The notes under the pieces were generated by a model. It was not told the origin of the DNA. It was given only the letters and a program-made list of their open reading frames with translations, and did not search any database. Below, in pieces: positions 900 through 53,531 of a stretch of 64,000 nt of DNA (its first letter is position 1; the number at the start of each line of letters is the position of its first letter). Both the position numbers and the translations under genes were made by a program. Where the stretch lies: assembly GCA_002839375.1 (NCBI GenBank), contig PGXY01000004.1, forward strand, positions 277,817-341,816, in the 5' to 3' direction. The DNA comes from Spirochaetae bacterium HGW-Spirochaetae-1. GTDB lineage: Bacteria > Spirochaetota > UBA4802 > UBA5550.

Positions 900-1442
900 A
901 TGCATGATACAGGAAAAATCCTACGGCATATCCATGTGAAACAGGGGGATATCACCGGGGAAGAGACCGATGCCATTGTCAACGCGGCCAATCCCTCCCT
1001 TCTGGGAGGCGGCGGAGTTGACGGCGCCATCCACCGGGCAGCCGGACCGGGACTCCTTAATGAATGCCGCGGTCTGGGTGGCTGCAGGCATGGAGAGGCG
1101 CGTATCACCGGCGGGCATAACCTGAAGGCCCGGTACGTCATCCATACGCCGGGACCCATCTACCGGGGAGGGAAGGACGGTGAAAGGAATATCCTCCAAA
1201 GCTCTTATCACAATTCCATGAACCTGGCCCGGGAAAAGGGCTGTACATCCATATCGTTCCCCGCCATATCCACGGGGGTATACGGGTATCCCCGCGATGA
1301 AGCATGCCGTGTTGCCGTTGATACGGTGATTGATTTTATGAAATCGGAAGAATATCTGATTGATGTATATTTCGTTCTTTTTGATAATGACAATTATTCT
1401 CGCTATGTTAAATATGTGAAGGAGCTGCAGGACGGGATATGA
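900..1442 (+). CDS. Macro domain protein (O-acetyl-ADP-ribose deacetylase / MacroD-YmdB-like)
   Basis: It has the GDITGEETDAIVNAAN...LLGGGGVDGAIHRAAGP motif characteristic of macro domains. A GGAGG RBS lies 10 nt upstream of the ATG. Confidence 0.8.
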   Translation: MHDTGKILRHIHVKQGDITGEETDAIVNAANPSLLGGGGVDGAIHRAAGPGLLNECRGLGGCRHGEARITGGHNLKARYVIHTPGPIYRGGKDGERNILQSSYHNSMNLAREKGCTSISFPAISTGVYGYPRDEACRVAVDTVIDFMKSEEYLIDVYFVLFDNDNYSRYVKYVKELQDGI

Positions 1443-2275
1443 ATTATACAGAAAGGCTGAAAGAAGCATCGGACAGGTTCGACAGTATTGTCTGCCTTGG
1501 ACTGGACCCGGTTGTGGAAGACATTCCGGAAAAGGGGGAACCGGCCGAGTGCATATTGCGGTTTTACGAAAACATCCTGGATAAAATTGTCCAGAAAAAG
1601 GTATTCCCCGGTTCGGTGAAACCAAACTACGCATTCTATGCCCAGTACGGTCTGAAGAGCATCGAGACCCTGGAGAAAATCGTGGGCCTGTACGCCAGGG
1701 AAGGCATTCCCGTCATACTCGATGTGAAACGCGGTGATATCGGGAAAACGGCCCAGGCCTATGCCCGCGAGGCCTATGAGTACTTCAAGGCCGATGCGGT
1801 CACCCTGTCCCCCTATCTGGGATATGATTCCATCGGTCCCTTTGTCGAGGAATATCCCGACAAGGGCAGCTACATACTAACCAAGACGTCGAACAAGAGT
1901 TCCGGCGAAATACAGGATGTTTCGTATAACGGCGCTCCGTTCTATGAATACATGGCGGCCATGATCCTGAAATGGCACCATCCCGGTATGGGTTCCGTTG
2001 TGGGTGCCACCTATCCCGAACAGCTCGACGCCATATCTTCTATTTTCATCGCGTCGGGGAAAGAGGTTCCCCTGCTGATTCCCGGTGTGGGAACCCAGGG
2101 TGGAAGCCTGGCGGAGGTGCTCCGGAGCCTTAAAAAATTTCCCGACATGCGCATTCACCGGATTAATTCCTCCAGCGCCATCAATTACGCCTACAAAAAG
2201 AATCCCGGTATTCATTATGCCGACGCGGCAGTTGAAGCCCTGAAACAGCTCAATGAAGAGATAGGGAGCATGTAA
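1439..2275 (+). CDS. pyrF: Orotidine 5'-phosphate decarboxylase, type 2
   Basis: It has the LDVKRGDIGKT signature of the long-form OMP decarboxylase and is about 278 aa. Its start overlaps the upstream gene's stop by 4 nt. Confidence 0.8.
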   Translation: MNYTERLKEASDRFDSIVCLGLDPVVEDIPEKGEPAECILRFYENILDKIVQKKVFPGSVKPNYAFYAQYGLKSIETLEKIVGLYAREGIPVILDVKRGDIGKTAQAYAREAYEYFKADAVTLSPYLGYDSIGPFVEEYPDKGSYILTKTSNKSSGEIQDVSYNGAPFYEYMAAMILKWHHPGMGSVVGATYPEQLDAISSIFIASGKEVPLLIPGVGTQGGSLAEVLRSLKKFPDMRIHRINSSSAINYAYKKNPGIHYADAAVEALKQLNEEIGSM

Positions 2276-4440
2276 TGACCAGGGACGCTCTGGACAGGGC
2301 GCGGGACACCGTTCTCATAGTGACGTCCCATGAAAAACTGGCCCGGGAAATAATTTTTTCTCTGGGCCCGGGATACGCGGCGACCCGGGCGGCAAACGCC
2401 ACGGAAGCCTTCAGCTTCATGACCTTCCAGCGGCCGGGAGTGATCATTGCCGACAGTGATCTTCCGGAGAAGAGCGGCATCGAGTTCCTGCATAACATTC
2501 GGGGCGGGTACCAGACCAAGCTGATACCCTTTATCATGATATCCCGAAAGGACAATACGCAGCAGCGTATCCGGGCCATAGAGGCGGGAGCCGATGCCTA
2601 TCTCAAGTACCCCTTTCTCGGCGAGGAACTGAGGGCCTTTGTGGCCTCCAAGCTGCATAAGTACCGGGAATTCTATCTTCTCTCCATCACCGATGAGCTG
2701 ACACGTCTCTATAACAGAAAAGAGTTTATCAAAAAATTCAATGACGAGACCGATGTCAGAAATTCGGGGACCATCGCCCTGGCTATTCTGGACCTGGATT
2801 TTTTCAAGCGGGTGAACGATTTATACGGCCACCAGATGGGGGACCAGGTTCTGCAGAAACTGGCCGAGATGCTTCGCGGAAGAAGCTCTTCCTCGTTTTT
2901 CCCCGCCCGCTTCGGCGGAGAGGAATTCGTTATTCTCTTTCCCGGGTTCAATACGGACCAGGCGAAGGTTGTCATGGAACGCCTTCTCCATGATTTTTCC
3001 CTCGTGCCTTTTAAAACAGAAAAGACAACTTTCTACGTGACATTCAGCGCCGGGATCGCTGAATATCCCGCCATGGCTTCCAATATATCGGAACTCCTTT
3101 CCCGATCGGACCAGGCCCTGTACGCCGCCAAAGAAGACGGCCGAAACCGGATCTATTCATTCAGCCCCATCATGGCCAGGAATGACAAGTTCTGGGAATA
3201 TCTTCGTTCGAACCGGGGGGTATTCATCGACAGCAGGGGTTGTGATTCTATCACAAAACTCCCGTATCTGCCCCAGCTCCTGGAAACCGTGGTGAACCTT
3301 GATTTTGAGCTTAACAGTATCGGGGTACTCGTGATCCGGTTCAGGCCCCTTTTTGATTTTGAAAAATATTTCGGCACGAAGAACTATTACTATGACATCG
3401 AAAATATCTCCATTATCATACAGAAATCCATAGAGCTCATATTCCCCACGGACATGTACGTGGGGCACAGCGATATTTTCGACCGGGAGTTTTTACTGCT
3501 GTTCCCCAGTATAATTGACTTCACCCTTAATACTGAAAGATTCAATGAAATTTGCCGTGAAATCTGCACGACAATTCAATACAGCCTCAGTGAATTTTCC
3601 ATGAATATGGAGTGTTCCTTCGGCATCATCCCGTATGAACGAATGAATCCCCACGGCATGTACCGTTCCATCAATGCCATACGCGGTGAAATGAGTATCC
3701 ATTCCGACAAGAGTGAAAAATTTATCAATTATCTGAAGACCATGGGCAATGGCGGCGGATCAGAGGACCTTCATGAAATCATGGAAATCAAGAATTTCTA
3801 TTCCATTGATCTCCTGGAGCCCCTGTACCAGTATCCGGCCCTGAAGGAGCCTCTTTCCCGCGATACATTTTTCAGCGCGATTCTGGAGGAAAGCATTACC
3901 GGCAGGGAGAGTCTCGGGACATTTCTTGTCGCCCTCAGGGGCGTCGTTCCCGGGGACACGGGGCTGCCGCTTCTTCTTCCCTGGATATCATCCATTTCCT
4001 TTGACGAATACGTTGATATAGCCGCGGGGGTTTTCGGCGAAAGGGAGCTTGTTATTCTCATCAATGAGAGCGGTATACCTGCCGTATTGAAGTCCGGCTA
4101 CATCAATACTCCCGCGTCGCTTCCCGGTACGGTGAGCATCGGGCTCGATAACTGCTTCATCGGCGCAGATATCCTGGGGTACCTTTCCATCATGGATTTC
4201 AGGGTATGCATTTTTTCCGAGAACATCTCCCGCAAGCTCCACCATTTCAAGGACCGGATCAAGATCATCAGCGGACTCATTCTTTTTCTCGACCAGGTGG
4301 GAATTCCCGCCCTGGCCCGGAACGTGCAGCTTGAGGAGGAATATCATATCCTCCGCGACCTGCACATTTCCTGCGCCGGCGGCGCTTATCTGGAAACCAT
4401 CAGGGAAGGCATCATGGAAGAGGCGCCGCTGAAGCTGTGA
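2275..4440 (+). CDS. Response-regulator receiver–GGDEF diguanylate cyclase with additional degenerate GGDEF-like and degenerate EAL-like C-terminal domains
   Basis: The N-terminal REC domain shows VIIADSDLPEKSG. The GGDEF domain has an intact RFGGEEFVILFPG. A second cyclase-like segment carries HSDIFDREFLLLFPS, and the C-terminus resembles EAL but with DNCFIGAD replacing DDFGTG and ARNVQ replacing EGVE. Confidence 0.75.
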   Translation: MTRDALDRARDTVLIVTSHEKLAREIIFSLGPGYAATRAANATEAFSFMTFQRPGVIIADSDLPEKSGIEFLHNIRGGYQTKLIPFIMISRKDNTQQRIRAIEAGADAYLKYPFLGEELRAFVASKLHKYREFYLLSITDELTRLYNRKEFIKKFNDETDVRNSGTIALAILDLDFFKRVNDLYGHQMGDQVLQKLAEMLRGRSSSSFFPARFGGEEFVILFPGFNTDQAKVVMERLLHDFSLVPFKTEKTTFYVTFSAGIAEYPAMASNISELLSRSDQALYAAKEDGRNRIYSFSPIMARNDKFWEYLRSNRGVFIDSRGCDSITKLPYLPQLLETVVNLDFELNSIGVLVIRFRPLFDFEKYFGTKNYYYDIENISIIIQKSIELIFPTDMYVGHSDIFDREFLLLFPSIIDFTLNTERFNEICREICTTIQYSLSEFSMNMECSFGIIPYERMNPHGMYRSINAIRGEMSIHSDKSEKFINYLKTMGNGGGSEDLHEIMEIKNFYSIDLLEPLYQYPALKEPLSRDTFFSAILEESITGRESLGTFLVALRGVVPGDTGLPLLLPWISSISFDEYVDIAAGVFGERELVILINESGIPAVLKSGYINTPASLPGTVSIGLDNCFIGADILGYLSIMDFRVCIFSENISRKLHHFKDRIKIISGLILFLDQVGIPALARNVQLEEEYHILRDLHISCAGGAYLETIREGIMEEAPLKL

Positions 4441-4510: not shown

Positions 4511-5038
4511 TCAGGTGATTTGGCGTTTCTTTGTACCCGCCTTCATCATGCTCCATACAACCATGTGATGAAAAGGCCGGATCAGGTTGAAATACACCGG
4601 CCCGGTCCAGTGAAGATACCTGACGGACGTGAATACGTGATACCGTGTACAATTCGAACTTAATTTTTCCGCTATGACACCGAATAACGCCGTTAAGTGT
4701 TTATCGTCGGGTGTTTCTGAAACCCAGTACTTATCCTCTTTTGCATCACGCACAATAAAGAATGACGCTTTTTCGCCGGGCGTAAAGGAAAGATCCTCCG
4801 GTTTTATTGAGGGCAATATCTCCGGCTTTTCATGACGAACCAGCCCGAGGATGCCTACAAGAAATTCCCTGATTCTATACAGAGAAACCATCCACCAGGG
4901 ATAGTAAGAGAGCATTCCGGAAATGAAACTTCTTAAATCGATATCACTCTCAATGGTTTTAACATCGATATGATCCGCATTCTGGAAATAAATCTCAAAC
5001 TCTTTGTATTTTTGAATTATATTCATTTTGTGATTCAT
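4511..5038 (-). CDS. Hypothetical protein (possibly DUF2867-like), at left edge of low-GC island
   Basis: It is a 175-aa ORF with intermediate GC and no motif I can assign with confidence. Confidence 0.45.
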   Translation of the reverse strand: MNHKMNIIQKYKEFEIYFQNADHIDVKTIESDIDLRSFISGMLSYYPWWMVSLYRIREFLVGILGLVRHEKPEILPSIKPEDLSFTPGEKASFFIVRDAKEDKYWVSETPDDKHLTALFGVIAEKLSSNCTRYHVFTSVRYLHWTGPVYFNLIRPFHHMVVWSMMKAGTKKRQIT

Positions 5039-5191
5039 ATAACGACAAAATGAGCTGTGCGAACCGCTGGTGAAGACTCCTTTAGCAAATCAGTTTAATC
5101 TCAACTGAATGGTTGAACTGCTTCAAATAAAGCGGGTCGAATCAGGCTCGATTTAATGTTAGATTTATTTTCTTATTGTGATTAATTCCTC

Positions 5192-6559
5192 TTAGACTTG
5201 ATGACGATAAAAACCTAATAAATCATAATTATAACTTAAATTTGAACCATTGAAATTTGATATAGCTATTAATTGAACGTCAATTTCTTCCATGTTAAAG
5301 AGCCTAATTATATCAGTAGTATATTCTTCATCATGTAACCACTCAAATGTGTTAGCAAGTTCCCTTCCTAGCTTTGTGATTATTATTACATTTATAGTTT
5401 TCTCTTTAATATTATTATTCCACGATATACGCCAGCCTCTATTTCCACATATCAAAGTTGAATCACTTTTTAAATTTACACTACGATTTGTAATCAATCC
5501 TACTTCTTTGAGTGTTTCTAAATCTTTTGAACTTATTCCAATAGAAGAATTATTTTTTATAAAAATAAACATTTCCTTTGGCTCGGGTAAATACAATGTT
5601 CTATGTTTCGCTATTTTGGTAAATATATCCTGTTCCTCTTTTGAAAGTGTTCTTAGTATTTTATCTGGTAACTCTTCTAGCATTTTATTCGCATTAAAGA
5701 AATATATTGGATTCCAAGATTTTACTTTCATCTTTACTTGTTGATCTTTTGTATTTCTCATAGGGAAAAATGAAATTCGGTGAGGATTATCTTCGATGTT
5801 AATACTTGATGTTAATTTAGCTTTTTCAATTGAAATGCATCTATTGATAATTGCATTAAAAAATAAACTAAGTTTTTTAAAATGAAAATCAATAAAATCA
5901 GTAGTTGTCCAATAATATTTTTGAGTTAATGGTGTATCAAGATTAGGATATCCATCTAATTGTTTTGGAATTGGGAGATAACCAATTTCAACAGGAGGTG
6001 ATATTGCTTGAATAGGGGGAGAAATTTGATGTATCCATCTATTACGTGTTGCAACAATACTATCAGAGGTAGGTCTATTTTCAGTTAGCCATACTTCTAG
6101 TGATTTTATGTGAGAACCAATTATATCATCTGAATTAGCTATTCCCTCACGAAATGCATGGTGTCTTAAATCACATTTTTTTTCCGGACGTCCAAGATTT
6201 AAATAACTATTTAGGAAAAGTCCTATAGAATCAAGAGATGCTTTTCCATGAGAAATGAAATCGAAAATTGCTTTTGAATGCTGCGCCTGTCCTACCGGGT
6301 CAAAGGGAAGAACACCTTCTTCGAATTGTTTTGAAATTCCACTTTCTATAGCTATTGCTTCTAAACCTGCAATTTTTGCCCATTGTAATTTTATAAGGGA
6401 ATCGATAAGAGCTTTGTATTTTTCCGACTTAATTTCAGATTCTTTTACAAGTTGAGATAGTAAGACAATTTCCTTATAACCTATTTCAGGCAAGAAATCA
6501 AATGCTACACGGACAAAAAAGTGAGGAGCTTTCTCAGGCAATTTAATGTCATTATTCAT
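5192..6559 (-). CDS. Hypothetical 455-aa soluble protein, low-GC island gene B (candidate effector of novel two-gene cassette)
   Basis: It is a long ORF in a roughly 30% GC region with AT-rich codon usage and no transmembrane segment. The N-terminal all-alpha region contains a basic/His motif CDLRHHAFREG. No family recognised. Confidence 0.6.
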   Translation of the reverse strand: MNNDIKLPEKAPHFFVRVAFDFLPEIGYKEIVLLSQLVKESEIKSEKYKALIDSLIKLQWAKIAGLEAIAIESGISKQFEEGVLPFDPVGQAQHSKAIFDFISHGKASLDSIGLFLNSYLNLGRPEKKCDLRHHAFREGIANSDDIIGSHIKSLEVWLTENRPTSDSIVATRNRWIHQISPPIQAISPPVEIGYLPIPKQLDGYPNLDTPLTQKYYWTTTDFIDFHFKKLSLFFNAIINRCISIEKAKLTSSINIEDNPHRISFFPMRNTKDQQVKMKVKSWNPIYFFNANKMLEELPDKILRTLSKEEQDIFTKIAKHRTLYLPEPKEMFIFIKNNSSIGISSKDLETLKEVGLITNRSVNLKSDSTLICGNRGWRISWNNNIKEKTINVIIITKLGRELANTFEWLHDEEYTTDIIRLFNMEEIDVQLIAISNFNGSNLSYNYDLLGFYRHQV

Positions 6560-6703
6560 TAAATTTTTCCTTTATTAATTGTTTTAGAATATTTTTCTAT
6601 ATTCTTGCCGCATAATAAGTTTTTGCAAATTCAAATCTAACGCTAAAGGTCACGAGGCCTGAAGCGCCAGCGCAAGGCTCCCGTGCACCTGTTTGTTCGG
6701 CTC

Positions 6704-7327
6704 TCATTTATTCTCAGAATTAGTCCAAAGAGATTTAAGGTATACTTTAGGATCAGTATTACTAGGCAATCTCTCTCTAAAAATAAGGCCCTTAAATGTC
6801 ACTTCTGGACGTTTATTAATTTCATCAGACACAACAGCCGTATAAACAAGCTGATATAATGATAAATCTGAATAAGATTGGCCTTTGGCTATGTATGATG
6901 AACCAATTATTATTGGTATACTCGTTTGATCAAAAATTTTCACATAACCTGTTTCCCTGAGTACATTTTTTTCAAGGTAGCCTTCAATATAACCTCGAAT
7001 GATTACGAGAGATAGCATGAAATCAGGTTGAGATATATTCCATTTGTCTTTATCAAGTTGTGGAGGTAGATGAACTGCAGCGCACTGTAATTGTATATTT
7101 GTATCTATCGTAGAAAGAAAAAGTTTATCATTGCTTTTGTTTATTGTCCCTCTATAAATTGCAGATCTGGAAGCAATAAAATCTTCTGTTGTTAAATTCA
7201 AAGCTTTCTCAGATATTGAACAACTTCTTATGGACACAACAATTGCGATTAATGAAAAAATTATAGATCCCACAGAGATTATAACTGTAGATGAAAACCA
7301 TGTTTTTTTTCTTTCATCATCATTCAT
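6704..7327 (-). CDS. Hypothetical 207-aa single-pass membrane protein, low-GC island gene A
   Basis: It has an N-terminal hydrophobic helix (WFSSTVIISVGSIIFSLIAIVVSI) followed by a roughly 170-aa hydrophilic domain. It runs co-directional with, and 144 bp upstream of, the 455-aa gene. GC is about 30%. Confidence 0.55.
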   Translation of the reverse strand: MNDDERKKTWFSSTVIISVGSIIFSLIAIVVSIRSCSISEKALNLTTEDFIASRSAIYRGTINKSNDKLFLSTIDTNIQLQCAAVHLPPQLDKDKWNISQPDFMLSLVIIRGYIEGYLEKNVLRETGYVKIFDQTSIPIIIGSSYIAKGQSYSDLSLYQLVYTAVVSDEINKRPEVTFKGLIFRERLPSNTDPKVYLKSLWTNSENK

Positions 7328-7806
7328 ATTTTCTTACCTGTATTAGCCTAACAATTCTTCTACAGATATTCCGTAAATATGCACAATATTAATAAAAATT
7401 GCTCTAAAAAGTCAACGACAATCGTATGTATAGTAGAAAATGATTTTTAAATTCTGTATTCCACGCTTAAAAGAATGATAAAAGGCATTCAAAAGTAAAT
7501 GTATTTTTAGATGTTCCCTGAACATACTTCGCGGCCTTCGCGCTCTTCTTGTAAAAATTCTTATCATTGAGATAAATATCCCTCTTTCCGGAATTTTGGG
7601 AAAGAGTGTTCTACAGCGACACAGTGGCACAGAGTTTTTAAGGGCAATATTTTTTCTATATTGAATGCTATTTTACGATGGTACAAATGCCATTTGAACA
7701 AATAGATAAAATATTTCTTGCAGCTAAACTTTATCAAGAAATCAAACTCTCTGTGTCTCCGTGCCTCTGTGGCAAATTATCTTTTTTCTCATCAGGTAAA
7801 ATATTA

Positions 7807-8325
7807 CTACCGCACCTGCCGGTAATAAATCCTCCGCATCTCGTAAAAGAATTCCAGGTATTCCGTCTTTTTATAATCAGGATAGGTCCAGGGCCAGAAC
7901 CGGAACTGCTTTCCGGAATAGTGGTATTCATTTTCCAGGTACACGCCCTTTTGCAGATACACGCGGTGATAGAAGTCCTTGCATGAGGCCAGGAAGACAT
8001 TGGCGAGGGTCATGTACCCGGGATCAATATTGACGCGGCGCTGCCCGCCCGTGGAGTGGATATCTTCAAGGGAATTGGTGAGGAGCTTGATAGCGGCGAT
8101 TTCCTCCCGATCCATAAGTCTCTCAAATGAAAGGAGTACTTTGTACAGGGGCTCGCCGATTTCACGGTAGTATTCCGTGTTGTCGAAAAGGATGGGGCCG
8201 CTGCAGAGATCGGAAGGGCCGAAATGCTCATTCAGTTTTTCTTCTATAGAGGAGAGATCGGCGGAATCCCTGTAGAGGATGCCGGCGAAGAGTTTTGCTT
8301 TTTCGGGAATTAATGGCTCAGCCAC
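7807..8325 (-). CDS. Conserved hypothetical protein (possibly DUF4416 family); start ambiguous (ATG 8367 overlapping ispD by 50 nt, or GTG 8325 with GGAGA RBS)
   Basis: The ORF track gives 7807..8367. A GTG at 8323-8325 preceded by cggagaagcaaaaac avoids a long overlap with ispD, whose stop is at 8318-8320. Confidence 0.55.
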   Translation of the reverse strand: MAEPLIPEKAKLFAGILYRDSADLSSIEEKLNEHFGPSDLCSGPILFDNTEYYREIGEPLYKVLLSFERLMDREEIAAIKLLTNSLEDIHSTGGQRRVNIDPGYMTLANVFLASCKDFYHRVYLQKGVYLENEYHYSGKQFRFWPWTYPDYKKTEYLEFFYEMRRIYYRQVR

Positions 8326-46652: not shown

Positions 46653-48536
46653 GTGAAAATGGACACGAGTTTGAAAGTTCTCATGGTGGATGCCGCATCG
46701 GGATATTACCGCGTGAACCGGTACCGTGTGGGTGATTTCTTCGGTCCCGTAGATCTGGGCCTGCATCTTTCGGCAAAACATAACAGTCTGAATATAGGTG
46801 CCGGGCTTCTGGCCGGGTCCATTTTTCCCGGAACAAATCGTCTTATTTTTACGGGATTTTCCCCCTGCTGGGGGGGCTTTTTTATTTCATCCATGGGGGG
46901 CGCAGCCCTGGTCTTTGACAACCTGGGAATAAACCTTCTTTCCCTGACTGGAAGGGCGCCCGTGCCTTCGGTGATGTACCTGAACCGGCTCCACGGTGAG
47001 GAGGTGGAACTGGAACTTCGCCCCGTGGACCCTGCAGCGGTGTGGGGCCAGGGAAGGGGCGGCATCTATGCCATGATGGACCATGCCTACGGGCTCTTCG
47101 GCAACCGGTACGCCACAGACCCCCGCATTCTGGCCGTTGGTCCGGCTGCCCTGGCAACGGATTTCGGCGCCATCGCCTCGGTGCCTATCACAAAGGGTGA
47201 AATCAGCTGCGTGGACACCTGGGCGGGCCGCGGCGGATTCGGTACAAAAATGCTTCGGGAGCACAATATCGCCGCCATCATCTACGGCGGTACTGTCGTG
47301 GACGAAGACTTCCGCGACCGGAAGGTGGCTGACCAGTGGTTTGTGGACAAGTACGAGAAGCGCATCGCGGCCAAGGACATCGAGGCCACGGCGAAATACC
47401 GCTTCGTGGAAAAACTCGAAACGGGCGGCACCTTCGGCGTGAACTACGCCACGCTTGCCGGGGCCATGATCTCTTTCAATTACCGCAGCATATATATGAG
47501 CGAGGAGGAGCGTCTCCGTATCCATAAAGAGTTCGTCCTGGACCACTACCTGAAGCAGTTCAACGAAGAGACCATCAAAACGAAACAGCAGAAGACCTGC
47601 GGCGAGCCCTGCGGTGCCGTGTGCAAGAAGATGAACCATGAATTCAAAAAGGACTACGAGCCCTACCAGACCATGGGCCCCCTGTCGGGGATATTCGATC
47701 AGCGGGCCGCCGAGAAGCTGAACCATCACGCCGACCTGCTGGGATTCGACGGCATTTCAGCGGGAGGCGTTGTTGCCTGGCTCATGGAATGCCTGCATGA
47801 AAAATATATTATTCCCGAAGACCTGGGAATTACCGGCGTGCCGCGCTTTTCTCCCGAAGGCTTCGATGTGGTTGGGGACTCCATGCACAACGCTGAAATC
47901 GGCGTGGCTATCCTCGATGCCATTGTTGAAAGGAAAGGGGTCCTGGACTTCAGTGAAGGCGCGCGGAAATTCGCACGCAGACTTTCCCGGGAACGGGGCG
48001 GGGCGGTCATGGACTGTTTTGTGTATAATGCCTACGCAAGAACAGGGTGGATGGTGCCAAACCAGTACTGGACCCCGGGAGCCCTGTCGCCCATGGCCAT
48101 CATGGGGAAATATTACATGCATTACGGCAGCGAGTTTGTGCCGCCCCGGGAGCTGGGCCGGAAGAACGCCGACCGGTTTAAGAAGGAGCTCGTCATGGAC
48201 AACCTGGGCCTGTGCCGCTTCCACCGGGGCTGGGGCGAGGAGATGCTTCCCGAAATCATGGAATCCCTCTACGGCATGAAGGATGAGTATCTCTCCAGTA
48301 TCTCCTTTACCGCTGCGCGGATCAACAGCAGGAATTCATCAATTTACTGGGAGTCGAAACGCAATGTGGATTTTATCCACCGGTTCCTGAAAAGGAAACG
48401 CGATGTGGAAGGGAATAAAGATCCGGTACTGCAGACCTGGATTGAGTTCTTTGACCGCGACCCCGGCGAGGCCGCGCTTTCCTTCTGGTACGAGGTGCAC
48501 AAGGGGATTACGGAGTCATTAAGGGAGTTCCGGTGA
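46653..48536 (+). CDS. Aldehyde ferredoxin oxidoreductase (AOR) family protein, putative tungsten/molybdopterin enzyme
   Basis: The N-terminal pattern LKVLMVDAASGYYRVNRYRVGDFFGPVDLGLHL resembles the AOR N-domain, and a Cys cluster KTCGEPCGAVC lies mid-protein. 627 aa. Divergent family member; the assignment is moderate. Confidence 0.5.
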   Translation: MKMDTSLKVLMVDAASGYYRVNRYRVGDFFGPVDLGLHLSAKHNSLNIGAGLLAGSIFPGTNRLIFTGFSPCWGGFFISSMGGAALVFDNLGINLLSLTGRAPVPSVMYLNRLHGEEVELELRPVDPAAVWGQGRGGIYAMMDHAYGLFGNRYATDPRILAVGPAALATDFGAIASVPITKGEISCVDTWAGRGGFGTKMLREHNIAAIIYGGTVVDEDFRDRKVADQWFVDKYEKRIAAKDIEATAKYRFVEKLETGGTFGVNYATLAGAMISFNYRSIYMSEEERLRIHKEFVLDHYLKQFNEETIKTKQQKTCGEPCGAVCKKMNHEFKKDYEPYQTMGPLSGIFDQRAAEKLNHHADLLGFDGISAGGVVAWLMECLHEKYIIPEDLGITGVPRFSPEGFDVVGDSMHNAEIGVAILDAIVERKGVLDFSEGARKFARRLSRERGGAVMDCFVYNAYARTGWMVPNQYWTPGALSPMAIMGKYYMHYGSEFVPPRELGRKNADRFKKELVMDNLGLCRFHRGWGEEMLPEIMESLYGMKDEYLSSISFTAARINSRNSSIYWESKRNVDFIHRFLKRKRDVEGNKDPVLQTWIEFFDRDPGEAALSFWYEVHKGITESLREFR

Positions 48537-48893
48537 GGGGATCACCTTTTAAAATATCCTGCTTGTAGCACCAGGCACATTGTAAGCGCTATTTACAATT
48601 TGCGCGGCTCCACTGTTTTATTGTTCGGGATAAATAATTGACATCTTATTCAGGGTATGCCAATTTTCTTGTTCCATGACAAGGGGGATGCCCGCGGTTG
48701 CACCCAGGGATTAAAGGTGAGAAGTAAATCAAACAAATGTGGATACTATATTACTAGTTGCATCTGTTGGACGTACTCCTGAATTTAGCAAAATCAACTT
48801 TTAACTTAAACCTGATAAAACTATTATCAGGCAAAGTAAATATTATGAATAATATTTTAGAGCCATTTTTTACATTATGAAGCATAAAGATAT

Positions 48894-49550
48894 ATGAGAA
48901 AATTTATATTATCAGAGAATCAGCTCCGTGTATTCCGGTTTATCATGATTCCCCTTGTTGTTATATTCATCGGGCTTTTTTTCTATGCAGAATATGAAGG
49001 AGAGAAAGAGGCACAAAAAATAATCGATGATTTCTTTCATTCAATTAGGAATATAAAAGCTGGAGATGTCCAAAAGATTTCGTTAATGAGCAGCGATGGA
49101 ATAAACAAATGTGAAATAACAATTATTAATCGAAAGGTTATTCAAGACTTCATCGAAAATATAACTCAAAGGACTGTAATAAGAGAAGATCATGCTGCTA
49201 GATTCTCATATAAGGTTGATTTAACATTAACATTTAAAGACAATTACCTGAGTTTTATGTTAAATAGTTCTCCAGTAAATAAGCTGACAACTGGTGCCAA
49301 TGATACTGTAGAAATTGCTTCATTTAAAAATGGTAATTTTACTATTGAGGACTATTTTGGTATTGATAATTATTATAAGTTTAATAAAACAATATCTGAG
49401 ATTTTTATGAAATATGGTGGTGATTTATCTGGTAATATCAGAAACGACTCCCTCTTACCCTTCATAGAAAAATACATCAAGGAACCCATGCGCAACAAGA
49501 CCATCAAAGATGAAAACGGCGTCAGCATCCGTTGCGTGGAGCTGGAATAA
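48894..49550 (+). CDS. Hypothetical membrane-anchored protein in low-GC island 2
   Basis: It has an N-terminal TM helix (FRFIMIPLVVIFIGLFFY) and lies in a roughly 30% GC island. No recognised domain. Confidence 0.5.
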   Translation: MRKFILSENQLRVFRFIMIPLVVIFIGLFFYAEYEGEKEAQKIIDDFFHSIRNIKAGDVQKISLMSSDGINKCEITIINRKVIQDFIENITQRTVIREDHAARFSYKVDLTLTFKDNYLSFMLNSSPVNKLTTGANDTVEIASFKNGNFTIEDYFGIDNYYKFNKTISEIFMKYGGDLSGNIRNDSLLPFIEKYIKEPMRNKTIKDENGVSIRCVELE

Positions 49551-49620
49551 TATCATATATATCATGGAGTCTTACATACGCAAAAACGGGAAAAAATTTT
49601 ATTTCGAAAGATAAATAAAT

Positions 49621-50043
49621 TTATTCGGCCAATCTTTTTTCAAATTCCAGGGCTGTTACTATTTTTATATTGTGATATGGATTCAGGACAAGAAGGTCTT
49701 TATCCCCGGTAATAAGATAGTCAGCATTAGCTGAAACAGCAAGTTCAAGCAGGAAGTTATCTTTTTCATCCCTGCAGTCTTTGATAGCGCAGTCTGGTTT
49801 AATAATCTTAATTTTTTCACCCAGTAATGAAATCAGCTCATAGAATTTAATGGCAGGTATTATTTTTTGTATGCGGGGATACTCGAGGACTTTAATAATT
49901 TCTTCAAATAATTCTTCGGAGAAAATTAACCGGATATTTCCATTTACTAACATTTTTTGCAGTGTGGCCAGGTTCCTGCCAACGAGCATGCTTATCCAGA
50001 GGTTGGTATCAACGACGACTTTTATTACGTTCTGATCTGACAT
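49621..50043 (-). CDS. PIN-domain toxin (VapC-like) of type II toxin–antitoxin system
   Basis: N-terminus VVVDTNLWIS with the first PIN acidic residue, and a distal ITGDKDLL motif. It overlaps the upstream small antitoxin gene. Confidence 0.75.
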   Translation of the reverse strand: MSDQNVIKVVVDTNLWISMLVGRNLATLQKMLVNGNIRLIFSEELFEEIIKVLEYPRIQKIIPAIKFYELISLLGEKIKIIKPDCAIKDCRDEKDNFLLELAVSANADYLITGDKDLLVLNPYHNIKIVTALEFEKRLAE

Positions 50044-50230
50044 TTTCAACTATCGCAGTAATCTCTTCGTCGGAAATTTCGTCCGATCTGAATTCTTTAA
50101 AAAGATTTTCAATACGATATTGGATAATTTCATCTTTTATTGTATCGTACAGCTTTAGCTTTTCATTAAAGGGCATGGCAGCTGCCGCATCAATAATCTG
50201 TTTTGTGTCTATATTCATTTTTATCTGCAT
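50009..50230 (-). CDS. Putative antitoxin ('addiction module component', TIGR02574-like)
   Basis: It is a 73-aa acidic protein (...KQIIDAAAAMPFNEKLKLYDTI...) immediately upstream of, and overlapping, the PIN gene. Confidence 0.6.
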   Translation of the reverse strand: MQIKMNIDTKQIIDAAAAMPFNEKLKLYDTIKDEIIQYRIENLFKEFRSDEISDEEITAIVENVRSERNKSRR

Positions 50231-50443
50231 CTTTATTTTTCCTCACGGGACTCATTATAGTAATAATATATAAAAAAGTACGGTCAAGTTATAATTTTTT
50301 TTTGATTGTTTTTATTTTAATCGAGACTCTGGCAAAGATATACCGTTCTCCGTAAAAACTGGACATGTAATAAGCAATATTTTAAGAGGGATTACATGGA
50401 ACAGAAAAATCAAAGATGGACCGAAGGCCGAAAGGCATACCCG

Positions 50444-52087
50444 TTACTGAAAATGCACCCGGTCCCGGCCCATCTCTTTGGCGCGATACATGGCCGCATC
50501 GGCCCTTTTTAGCGAATCGTGGGCATTATCATCGTTTTCCATGAGGGACGTGAGCCCTATACTGACCGTGAAATCCGCTGTGATGTTGTCCAGGGATACG
50601 CGCGTTGTGGAAATCTCGTTTCTGAGGCGCTGGGCCACATCCAGGGCTCTGTCCCGGTCGGTGTCGATGAGAACCACGGCGAATTCCTCGCCACCCATAC
50701 GTCCCAGAATATCACTTTCCCGCAAAACCTGGCGGGTTTTTTCCACCAGGCTCCGCAGTACCATATCGCCGAAGAAGTGCCCGTGGGCATCATTAATGCT
50801 CTTGAAGTGGTCCACGTCCATCATGAGGAATGACAGGGGATAGCTGTAACGCCGTGACCTGCTGATCTCGTATTCAGCTTTTTCGAAGAAGCTTCGGCGG
50901 TTGTCGATACTGGTTAGGGGGTCCGTGGCAGCCAGGTACTTCAGCCTGTTCTCATGGCTCTTACGCTGGGTTATATCGCGCACCAGGGACTGTATGTATT
51001 TTTTACCTCCCAGGTCGAGTACGCTGAGCATGATCTCGGCGGGGAATATATCACCATCTCGTCTTCGGTGCGTCCATTCGAAGAGATGACTTCCCCTGTC
51101 CATGGCTTTTTGTATGTGTTCACGCGACAGCTTGACGGAATTTTCACCGCCGGGCTGTTCAGGAGGAGAAAAGTCATAGGGGTGATGATTGATAAACTGT
51201 TCCCGGCTGTCGCACCGGAACATGGTCAGCGTTGCCTCGTTGCAGTCCACGAAAGAGTCATTTTCAAGAATCATTACTGCGTCACGTGTCGATTCAAAGA
51301 GGAGACGGTGTTTCATCTCAGATTCCCGCAGTGCGCGTTCCGTCATTTTCTGAGGGGTGATGTCGATGGTGAATCCCGCCAGGAGTGGCGGATGGTCTTT
51401 ACGGATGATGGGGAACTTTGTCGTTGAATAATAGCGCCCATCAAGCTCCTCCACCACTTCCAGGGGTTTTCCTTCCTGCAGGATCCTCTCATCATCGGCC
51501 ACCATGCCTTTTGCCAGGTCCGAAGGGAAGAGGTCGAACATGGTTTTTCCCAGCAGTTCTTCTATGGGCCGGCCGATCATTGTTTCATAGTTTTTACTCA
51601 GTTTAAGGGAACGGATATGGTCGTCTTTAAAAAATACATAGCTGGGGCTGTGTTCCAGAAAGAGGTCGAGCAGATCCCGGTCGGTTTCCAGTTCATTGAG
51701 CCGGTCTTTCTGCCTGTTATGTTGCGAAAGGGCTGAACGGATTGCCATGGGAAGAAGAGTAGCGATATGGGATTCCGGTATGTATCCGCAGGAGATCAGG
51801 GATTCCGATTTCTGCAGCAGTTCCGGGCCGGTATTATCGCCGACAATAAACAGCAGGGGAAGGTCATGGTCCATGAGAAATGCGGCCAGGGTCTGAATAT
51901 CGTCGGGAATGCATTTTCGGGAAAGATTCACGATGATGATCTTGTCGGTATTTCCGGTAATGAGCTCCCTGAATGATTCAGTATTATACACCGGTGATAT
52001 GCTGAATCCCTGCTCCCTCATGAAGGAGAGGGCTTTTCCTTCATCGGTTGCTCGTGGGTCAAAAAAGAGAATTTCGGTTTTATCCAT
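50444..52087 (-). CDS. Response-regulator-like N-domain–PAS–PAS–GGDEF diguanylate cyclase
   Basis: The C-terminal GGDEF domain has an intact GGEEF (RMGGEEFAVVL) and an RxxD I-site region. Two PAS-like segments precede it. Confidence 0.8.
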   Translation of the reverse strand: MDKTEILFFDPRATDEGKALSFMREQGFSISPVYNTESFRELITGNTDKIIIVNLSRKCIPDDIQTLAAFLMDHDLPLLFIVGDNTGPELLQKSESLISCGYIPESHIATLLPMAIRSALSQHNRQKDRLNELETDRDLLDLFLEHSPSYVFFKDDHIRSLKLSKNYETMIGRPIEELLGKTMFDLFPSDLAKGMVADDERILQEGKPLEVVEELDGRYYSTTKFPIIRKDHPPLLAGFTIDITPQKMTERALRESEMKHRLLFESTRDAVMILENDSFVDCNEATLTMFRCDSREQFINHHPYDFSPPEQPGGENSVKLSREHIQKAMDRGSHLFEWTHRRRDGDIFPAEIMLSVLDLGGKKYIQSLVRDITQRKSHENRLKYLAATDPLTSIDNRRSFFEKAEYEISRSRRYSYPLSFLMMDVDHFKSINDAHGHFFGDMVLRSLVEKTRQVLRESDILGRMGGEEFAVVLIDTDRDRALDVAQRLRNEISTTRVSLDNITADFTVSIGLTSLMENDDNAHDSLKRADAAMYRAKEMGRDRVHFQ

Positions 52088-52227
52088 TGATTAAATTTGC
52101 TCCGTATTGCAGCACTATATATACAGTAAAAATAAACGTACAGTTATTTTCAAATATTTTATTTTTGCTTTTCCAATATTTATCAGACCATGGAGAGAAT
52201 TTTCCCCTCTGCGTCGCCTATGATACG

Positions 52228-52242
52228 GCTCTGACCCCAGGA
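52228..52242 (+). repeat. REP-like element copy (GGCTCTGACCCCAGG)
   Basis: Same core as the REPs flanking the RAYT gene. It is paired with an inverted copy 66 bp downstream. Confidence 0.6.
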
Positions 52243-52301
52243 AGTATCCCCGGGAATTGACTATGATGTGGTGAATACCGCAGCCGGAACCGGATCTGGC
52301 T

Positions 52302-52319
52302 GCATGGAGGGTCAGAGCC
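52302..52319 (-). repeat. REP-like element copy, inverted (GCATGGAGGGTCAGAGCC)
   Basis: Its 17-mer is identical to the copy at 22777-22793. Confidence 0.6.
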
Positions 52320-52583
52320 TCCCCGGAAAAGATCCGGCCCAGGCGTTTACCTACGGCAGTATAGTAATCCAGAATACCCATCTCTTCAGGCGGGCTTTCC
52401 AGGAAAAGCTGGTTCTCGTTGTTCAGGTCGCCCGTGGTCTGGAGAAAATAGAACTTCATGGAAATATCCTGCCATAAATAAAAGATAATTACAAATAAAA
52501 AATGATTGTCAGGTGATTGTTGCGGCGCTATGACATCTGTATGGTTGTTGAAAATTAGAATGGCAATTATATAAAAGAGGGAC

Positions 52584-53531
52584 ATGGTTGAAGTAACGGA
52601 GCTTACCAAGTTTTTTGTCACACGGAAAAAGGGGTTCTTTGAAAAACCCGGCACTATCCGGGCCGTGGACAACATCAGCTTTTCCATCAGGCGCGGCGAG
52701 ACCCTGGGCATGGTGGGCGAGAGCGGCAGCGGCAAGACTACGGCGGTGCGTTCCCTCCTGCGACTTATCGAGCCCGATGCCGGAACCGTCATCATCAATG
52801 GTGTAAGGGTCGATTCCCTGGCCGGGAAGGACCTGCGGGAATTCCGTAAGAATGTACAGATCGTGTTCCAGGACCCCTACAGCGCCCTGGACCCGCGCAT
52901 GACCGTGGGTAAAATTATTTCCGAGCCGTTGCGCATTCACACCGATATGAACAGGACCCTGATACAGGAGCGCCTGGAGGAACTGATCGACCTGGTGGGT
53001 CTCACACCGGACCACATAGACCGGTATCCCCATGAATTCAGCGGAGGGCAGCGCCAACGTATCGGCATCGCCCGGGCCATTGCCCTGAACCCCTCCTTCA
53101 TCATTCTCGATGAACCGGTCTCGGCGCTGGACGTTTCCATACAGGGACAGATTCTTAACCTGCTGAACGACATACAGGAAAAGATGGGCCTGACCTATCT
53201 TTTCGTGGCCCACAACCTGGCCGTGGTGGAGCATATGAGCGATACCATCGTGGTCATGTACCTGGGGAAAATCGTCGAGGAGAGCCCCAGGGCCGATCTC
53301 TTTGCAAATCCGCTTCATCCCTATACGCGGAGCCTCCTCAAATCCGTTCCCGAGATGAAGGCCCGCAAACACGGTTTTTCCGTTCTGAAGGGTGAGATAC
53401 CCTCGCCGGAAAATCCTCCGCAGGGCTGTCATTTTCATCCCCGGTGCCCCCAGGCTATGGATATATGCAGGGACGTCTATCCCGACATGAAAAAGACGGG
53501 CAATGCTCGCGCCGCCTGTCATCTCTATTGA
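52584..53531 (+). CDS. Oligopeptide/dipeptide ABC transporter ATP-binding protein (OppF/DppF-like), apparently orphan
   Basis: Walker A GESGSGKTT, ABC signature LSGGQRQR, and the C-terminal oligopeptide-ABC extension (HPYTRSLL...CHFHPRCP). Confidence 0.85.
   Translation: MVEVTELTKFFVTRKKGFFEKPGTIRAVDNISFSIRRGETLGMVGESGSGKTTAVRSLLRLIEPDAGTVIINGVRVDSLAGKDLREFRKNVQIVFQDPYSALDPRMTVGKIISEPLRIHTDMNRTLIQERLEELIDLVGLTPDHIDRYPHEFSGGQRQRIGIARAIALNPSFIILDEPVSALDVSIQGQILNLLNDIQEKMGLTYLFVAHNLAVVEHMSDTIVVMYLGKIVEESPRADLFANPLHPYTRSLLKSVPEMKARKHGFSVLKGEIPSPENPPQGCHFHPRCPQAMDICRDVYPDMKKTGNARAACHLY

Follow-up and report, generated by a model that had tools for sequence, protein, structure and literature searches.

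Gene content and composition of the low-GC patch

We analyzed a stretch of 64,000 nucleotides (nt) from Spirochaetae bacterium HGW-Spirochaetae-1 (contig PGXY01000004.1, positions 277,817 to 341,816 of the forward strand; hereafter the window), in which a patch of low guanine-plus-cytosine content (GC) separates an AOR-family gene from a gene encoding a PAS-PAS-GGDEF diguanylate cyclase. The patch holds three open reading frames (ORFs) only. These are orf218, an orphan gene whose product of 218 amino acids (aa) is predicted to be signal-anchored, and, convergent to it, a small antitoxin gene followed by the gene of a PIN-domain toxin (Table 1). In our view the patch probably represents a small block of DNA of foreign composition in a promoter-free gap between convergent host genes, and it would consist of two independent units, namely a complete type II toxin-antitoxin (TA) cassette and the orphan signal-anchored gene. 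An earlier description of this DNA, made from the letters and their ORFs without database searches (the sequence-only reading), had placed the three ORFs at the same coordinates as our re-derived ORF list, and its identification of the two neighbors as AOR-family and GGDEF genes was confirmed by matches to the AFOR_N, AFOR_C, PAS, and GGDEF families.

Table 1. Features of the low-GC patch and its flanks, in window coordinates.
Feature	Coordinates	Strand	Basis or remark
Left flank, AOR-family (GAPOR-like) gene	46653..48536	+	AFOR_N + AFOR_C; intact
Low-GC patch	48551..50500	.	AOR-family and PAS-GGDEF genes converge on it with their 3' ends
orf218, orphan gene, predicted 218-aa signal-anchored protein	48894..49550	+	ORF; one distant homolog
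Predicted transmembrane signal anchor, residues ~16-32 (FIMIPLVVIFIGLFFYA)	48939..48989	+	Hydropathy; positive-inside rule
PIN_3/TIGR00305 toxin (VapC-type), 140 aa	49621..50043	-	Profile matches, catalytic residues, predicted fold
Overlap of antitoxin 3' end and toxin 5' end, 35 nt	50009..50043	-	Also in homologous pairs
Cognate antitoxin, 73 aa	50009..50230	-	Pairing in homologous loci; NF047401 match below cut-off
Cassette 5' region	50231..50300	-	Conserved with L083 and L084; GAGGA ribosome-binding site
Right flank, PAS-PAS-GGDEF diguanylate cyclase gene	50444..52087	-	Intact

The AT-rich stretch of about 1.9 kb that had been reported between the two flanking genes was readily recovered, with sharp edges. 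GC of the patch core (48,600-50,400) was 0.331, and that of the flanks 0.50-0.60. In windows of 300 nt across the 64 kb (mean GC 0.490, standard deviation 0.071), values of 0.26-0.37 were obtained between about 48,650 and 50,450, with 0.50-0.63 on either side; followed along the contig, GC was 0.54-0.59 inside the AOR-family gene, dropped at the patch, and recovered to 0.55 within the GGDEF gene. In the 64 kb, GC remained below 0.40 for more than 1 kb at only two places, 4,751-7,950 and 48,551-50,500. GC at third codon positions (GC3) was 0.32 for orf218, 0.38 for the PIN gene, and 0.30 for the antitoxin gene, versus 0.63, 0.71, 0.61, and 0.71 for the neighboring Rrf2, AOR-family, GGDEF, and ABC genes respectively.

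The flanking genes end cleanly on either side. Homologs of the AOR-family protein align up to residue 626 of its 627, and the GGDEF domain reaches residue 543-545 of the 547-aa protein on the right. Since both flanking genes are intact and the patch lies between their stop codons, neither a gene nor a promoter has been interrupted. No Rfam family was matched in 48,300-50,700, promoter and terminator scans of the patch gave shuffle-level background, and no stable fold was obtained for the 70 nt that separate orf218 from the convergent PIN gene.

The PIN toxin and its antitoxin

The gene convergent to orf218 had been read as that of a PIN-domain toxin, and we found its product to be a full-length member of PIN_3/TIGR00305. 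PF13470 (PIN_3) matched with 67.2 bits against a cut-off of 27, and TIGR00305 with 114.2 bits against a cut-off of 29.15, each over profile positions 1-115 of 115; 695 homologs of the toxin were retrieved. In an alignment of 22 homologs (42-71% identity), residues D12, T13, N14, S42, E48, R91, D92, D95, N96, T112, G113, D114, and D116 were invariant, and the window toxin carries every one of them. The conserved acidic set is thus intact, comprising D12 of the DTN motif, the central Glu E48, D92 and D95 of RDxxDN, and D114 and D116 of TGDxD; a loss of these residues, against which the sequence-only reading had asked its call to be checked, was not observed in this alignment. The AlphaFold2 model of the toxin built from the same 22 homologs reached a predicted local distance difference test score (pLDDT) of 83.6, and nearly all top Foldseek matches of the model in the PDB were PIN-like (template-modeling score 0.58-0.66, probability 1.00). 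Among them were AF0591 (1o4w), PAE2754 (1v8o), Pyrococcus horikoshii VapC4 (5h4g), Mycobacterium tuberculosis VapBC (5x3t), and human SMG6 (2hww), solved PIN domains that have the same fold at a sequence identity of only 14-22%. From what is established for VapBC systems, we infer that the toxin would be a metal-dependent endoribonuclease.

The toxin frame offers an ATG at 50,043 and an in-frame TTG at 50,049. Because all homologs begin at the MSDQN motif, the ATG at 50,043 is the correct start, giving a product of 140 aa. The Joint Genome Institute (JGI) call (L001, 10,677-11,045) starts at M19, which yields 122 aa and drops the first catalytic Asp, D12, and this annotation should give way to the 140-aa call.

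For the 73-aa antitoxin, the label TIGR02574-like given by the sequence-only reading needs correcting. Both TIGR02574 and Pfam Unstab_antitox were absent at E <= 0.1, and Pfam offered no family for the protein. The only model that recognized it was NF047401 (VapB15 family antitoxin), which aligned antitoxin residues 5-68 of 73 with model positions 2-65 of 66 at E 1.6e-15 and 57 bits, versus a curated equivalog cut-off of 80. Judged from this match, the antitoxin is related to the VapB15 family but lies below the membership criterion of the National Center for Biotechnology Information (NCBI). The pair also differs from VapB15 systems in the partner toxin, which matched TIGR00305 alone and no VapC15-type model. 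When a profile of nine antitoxin homologs was compared with the PDB, designed helical repeats were retrieved, the best non-designed match was archaeal RelB (1wmi_B) at a weak E of 0.015, and no VapB chain was returned. With an isoelectric point of 5.1, the antitoxin is mildly acidic, and its profile matches suggest a small and probably helical protein.

The TA pair as a recurring cassette

The overlap of about 35 nt between the small upstream antitoxin gene and the PIN gene, which had already been pointed out, proved to be shared with other genomes in which the pair co-occurs. Such an overlap fits translational coupling. A GAGGA ribosome-binding site stands 9 nt ahead of the antitoxin ATG. The closest homologs of the toxin occupied three distinct genomic contexts in six loci (L083, L084/85, and L086-88), and in each context a 73-aa antitoxin homolog came first, with the same overlap of about 35 nt and with unrelated surrounding genes. 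Antitoxin and toxin have diverged in parallel, their respective identities to the window pair being 71 and 73% in L083, 69 and 69% in L084/85, and 62 and 63% in L086-88. In L083-85 the cassette has a GC of 31-32% within loci of about 39-40%, like the window copy. Upstream of the antitoxin, the block ACTTGACC...TTTTTATAT recurs in the cassettes of L083 and L084; no clear operator was identified in this conserved promoter region. DNA similarity to these two cassettes gives out some 70 nt before the antitoxin ATG, and at the other end the cassettes compared share nothing after the toxin stop. Because conservation stops at these two points, the recurring unit measures about 680 nt and comprises promoter, antitoxin, and toxin.

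In the Spirochaetota contigs L086-L088 (about 1,100-4,000), the cassette directly adjoins genes for an RHS-repeat protein that contains Peptidase_C39_2, for a protein with a NADase_transloc domain, for a phage-type integrase, and for small products that match no Pfam family. This neighborhood is variable DNA and looks like a polymorphic-toxin island.

PIN_3 toxins are listed among the VapC-type toxins of TA systems, and their groups were described by Matelska et al. 2017 (PMC5499597). PIN_3 toxins are also passengers of Tn3-family transposons, in which they are paired with RHH_6 antitoxins (PMC7157771). The window pair differs from the latter, in that its antitoxin is not RHH_6 and belongs to no Pfam antitoxin family, and no transposon or resolvase is found nearby. 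With VapBC systems of the PIN_3 type (PF13470/TIGR00305/COG1569) it shares a toxin well above both cut-offs, the acidic residues, the PIN fold, the antitoxin-first order, the overlapping genes, and a cassette that moves between genomic contexts. The DNA of the patch gave no match to plasmids in a distant-mode search, and plasmid-borne PIN homologs were 32-36% identical among the matches listed. The TA pair is an ordinary, intact, and apparently functional VapBC-like (PIN_3) type II cassette.

If the cassette works as other VapBC systems do, its promoter would drive first the 73-aa antitoxin and then the 140-aa PIN_3/TIGR00305 toxin, the latter acting as an endoribonuclease that depends on Mg2+/Mn2+. 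For a VapC-type toxin, the expected targets would be tRNA or rRNA loops. By binding over the active site, the co-translated antitoxin would hold the toxin inactive, and it probably autoregulates the cassette promoter. Loss of the labile antitoxin would then free the nuclease and lead to growth arrest. The second unit of the patch, orf218, would encode a signal-anchored protein that is probably no partner of the TA pair.

The orphan gene orf218

The product of orf218 had been described as a protein with one N-terminal transmembrane helix and no recognizable domain, and hydropathy analysis and family libraries agreed with both points. A single hydrophobic segment was found (Kyte-Doolittle 19-residue maximum 2.44), preceded by four basic residues (R2, K3, R12, and R15) and followed by an acidic stretch. 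Given this basic N-terminus, a signal anchor with N-in, C-out topology is predicted from the positive-inside rule; no lipobox was present in orf218. Both NCBI and JGI call the gene from M18, which gives a protein of 201 aa. No family was matched in Pfam, NCBIfam, PADLOC, or PHROGs. A word-indexed search of 5.8 billion clusters returned only orf218 itself, a profile search of the PDB gave nothing reproducible, and no relative was found by pattern scans of viral and metagenome contigs or by tblastn against phages and plasmids.

An exhaustive HMMER search, run on 1.84 billion sequences that represent about 15 billion predicted proteins, retrieved one relative, P0002. It is encoded on a 943-nt metagenome contig (L082, from sample ERZ23495300), where the homology runs in frame upstream of the called GTG start. 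Residues 34-214 of orf218 aligned with this frame at 32% identity over 185 residues (pairwise E 2e-21), and the conserved positions include C73, C214, and E98-D99-H100-A101. Because of this alignment, and because the chance of 218 codons staying open at this base composition is about 4e-8, we regard orf218 as a real gene. On L082 the homology ends where GC shifts from 15-32% to 54-69%, and therefore each of the two known copies is found in AT-rich DNA that borders on GC-rich DNA.

The junction on L082 lies at about nt 320, where the AT-rich orf218-like frame meets a GC-rich fragment and both genes are truncated; by eye, the GC-rich part resembles a fragment of a GH27 alpha-galactosidase on the opposite strand, with an internal stop. 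Either a chimeric assembly or a rearrangement of the locus could account for this. A NikR assignment of the orf218 family was rejected as compositional noise, since the L082 copy scored 18.8 bits (E 0.0012, cut-off 111) and the window protein did not match.

Beyond its anchor, orf218 is predicted to contain an alpha/beta domain of about 185 aa that faces the periplasm. Our best guess is that it may be an envelope-located accessory cargo protein of the moron-like kind. Like the orphan moron-like cargo genes of AT-rich islets, orf218 is AT-rich, stands singly, belongs to no family, and has a small, membrane-anchored product; the likeness is by analogy only, as orf218 has no phage or plasmid relative in the collections searched.

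Origin and organization of the patch

Composition and codon-position GC set the patch apart from its host in the manner of an island, and horizontal acquisition is probably the best reading of this composition. An unlikely alternative is that the DNA of the patch is native, or has resided in the genome since ancient times; its low GC would then reflect constraints that are relaxed or different in small accessory genes and in AT-rich intergenic DNA. That mobility signatures were not found would agree with this alternative, as would the many short dips below 0.40 GC in the window and the L083-85 cassettes, which also fall below the GC of their own genomes (0.31-0.32 versus 0.39-0.40). However, the difference in GC3 (0.30-0.38 in the patch versus 0.61-0.71 in the neighbors) goes far past normal within-genome variation, all other dips are <= 500 nt except for the segment at 4,751-7,950, and the nearest relatives of the cassette reside in genomes of about 39-41% GC. 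Moreover, the change in GC downstream of the AOR-family gene was -0.235 in the window versus -0.013 +/- 0.042 in 107 AOR loci, placing the drop about 5 standard deviations outside that seen after AOR genes elsewhere. Among 185,579 species genomes and the JGI metagenomes, the closest AOR homologs were <= 73% identical, spread over many phyla, and without synteny. None of orf218, the toxin, or the antitoxin was found near AOR in 160 AOR-bearing loci, relatives that are too distant to count as absence at the same site. The GC drop at the AOR locus and the absence of the three genes from the other AOR loci are consistent with insertion and are no proof of it.

Within a patch of foreign DNA, the three genes might still form one functional unit, such as a membrane sensor or effector joined to a PIN TA module in anti-phage defense or abortive infection. 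The genes are indeed close, with 70 nt between the convergent orf218 and PIN genes, all three are similarly low in GC, and the PIN domain weakly matches the PADLOC candidate defense protein PDC-M11A (E 3e-4, 17.8 bits). However, this match is limited to the PIN domain of a 501-residue profile, and among the PADLOC-DB defense models it was the only one to the toxin, with none to orf218 or the antitoxin. Being convergent, orf218 and the PIN gene do not form one operon, no orf218 relative lies near the homologous TA cassette in its three contexts (six loci), and the sole orf218 homolog from the exhaustive search has no TA gene on its contig. We consider a single unit very unlikely, and orf218 is treated as independent cargo because no relative of it was found near homologous TA cassettes or in phages, plasmids, or viral and metagenome contigs. 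The one coherent island proposed by the sequence-only reading was accordingly not supported, in that elsewhere the TA cassette travels alone and is never adjoined by orf218, and the hallmarks of mobility are missing. The TA cassette and orf218 were perhaps acquired in separate events.

An assembly or binning artefact, in which foreign reads were joined into the contig, is scarcely credible even though the source is a metagenome-assembled genome (MAG) of a spirochaete from Horonobe groundwater and the sole orf218 homolog sits on a short, possibly chimeric contig with a truncated gene in each half, because two records, of NCBI and JGI, place the patch in the interior of very long contigs (850,579 and 556,528 bases) and both flanks are host-like, with intact genes ending cleanly on either side.

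Against the reading that we prefer, namely a compositionally foreign block made of a TA cassette and an independent orphan gene, several observations have to be set. Of the horizontal acquisition that had been proposed from composition, the deviant GC and GC3 stand, but there was no tRNA in the 64-kb window, no integrase or transposase in the patch, and no att site or significant terminal repeat at it. Two candidate boundary repeats were rejected as chance-level, a 13-nt inverted repeat at 48,545/50,377 that was matched in 30 of 500 shuffles and a 28-nt direct repeat at 48,706/50,387 that was matched in 210 of 500. The insertion is read from composition only, because the collections hold no close relative of the genome. 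With regard to the cassette, no solved structure of this PIN_3 subgroup was detectable at the sequence level, and no biochemical data on the subgroup were found. Neither Pfam nor the PDB profile revealed a recognizable DNA-binding domain in the antitoxin; autoregulation is an assumption, because the antitoxin is without such a domain and lies below the VapB15 cut-off. As for orf218, its L082 homolog has neither a start codon nor a transmembrane segment and comes from the possibly chimeric 943-nt contig, and the AlphaFold2 model of orf218 from the two-sequence alignment was unusable (pLDDT 37).

Neighboring genes and the second low-GC segment

The segment at 4,751-7,950 has a GC of 0.29-0.35 and carries a 455-aa ORF (5,192-6,559, minus strand) and a 207-aa ORF (6,704-7,327, minus strand), neither of which has a Pfam family; the N-terminus of the 207-aa ORF is hydrophobic by eye, and a DUF2867 protein (4,511-5,038, minus strand) adjoins the two. 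No DNA or protein similarity was detected between this segment and the patch, and direct comparison bore out the earlier statement that the 218-aa and 207-aa membrane proteins are dissimilar.

The AOR-family (GAPOR-like) protein at 46,653-48,536 scored 330 bits, the cut-off being 1,300. Proteins from MAGs labeled Spirochaetota, Bacteroidota, Desulfobacterota, Planctomycetota, Campylobacterota, Acidobacteriota, and others share 64-73% identity with it, and this conservation is unusually even across phyla, with no conserved neighbors; the Rrf2 regulator upstream of the gene is not kept in other AOR loci. Between the GGDEF and ABC-ATPase genes lies a 227-aa ORF (52,115-52,798, minus strand) with no Pfam family, where JGI calls a 156-aa gene. 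This ORF overlaps a short low-GC intergenic dip at 51,900-52,200 and may not be a real gene.

Significance

The patch matters little beyond annotation. Its TA cassette adds another member to a very large family that is already catalogued, and is not a new kind of system. The subgroup with a 73-aa, helical, Pfam-less antitoxin could be a convenient compact VapBC variant. The only real unknown of the patch is orf218. There is a small chance, somewhat speculative in our view, that orf218 and its L082 relative represent a new and very rare family of signal-anchored extracytoplasmic proteins in which two Cys residues and the motif EDHA are conserved. Such a family would be carried into GC-rich genomes as AT-rich cargo of one gene at a time, and its members could perhaps serve in the exclusion of phages or mobile elements at the envelope or in immunity to secreted toxins. 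If this were true, the presence of orf218 beside a TA cassette would mark a hotspot for the insertion of defense and accessory genes.

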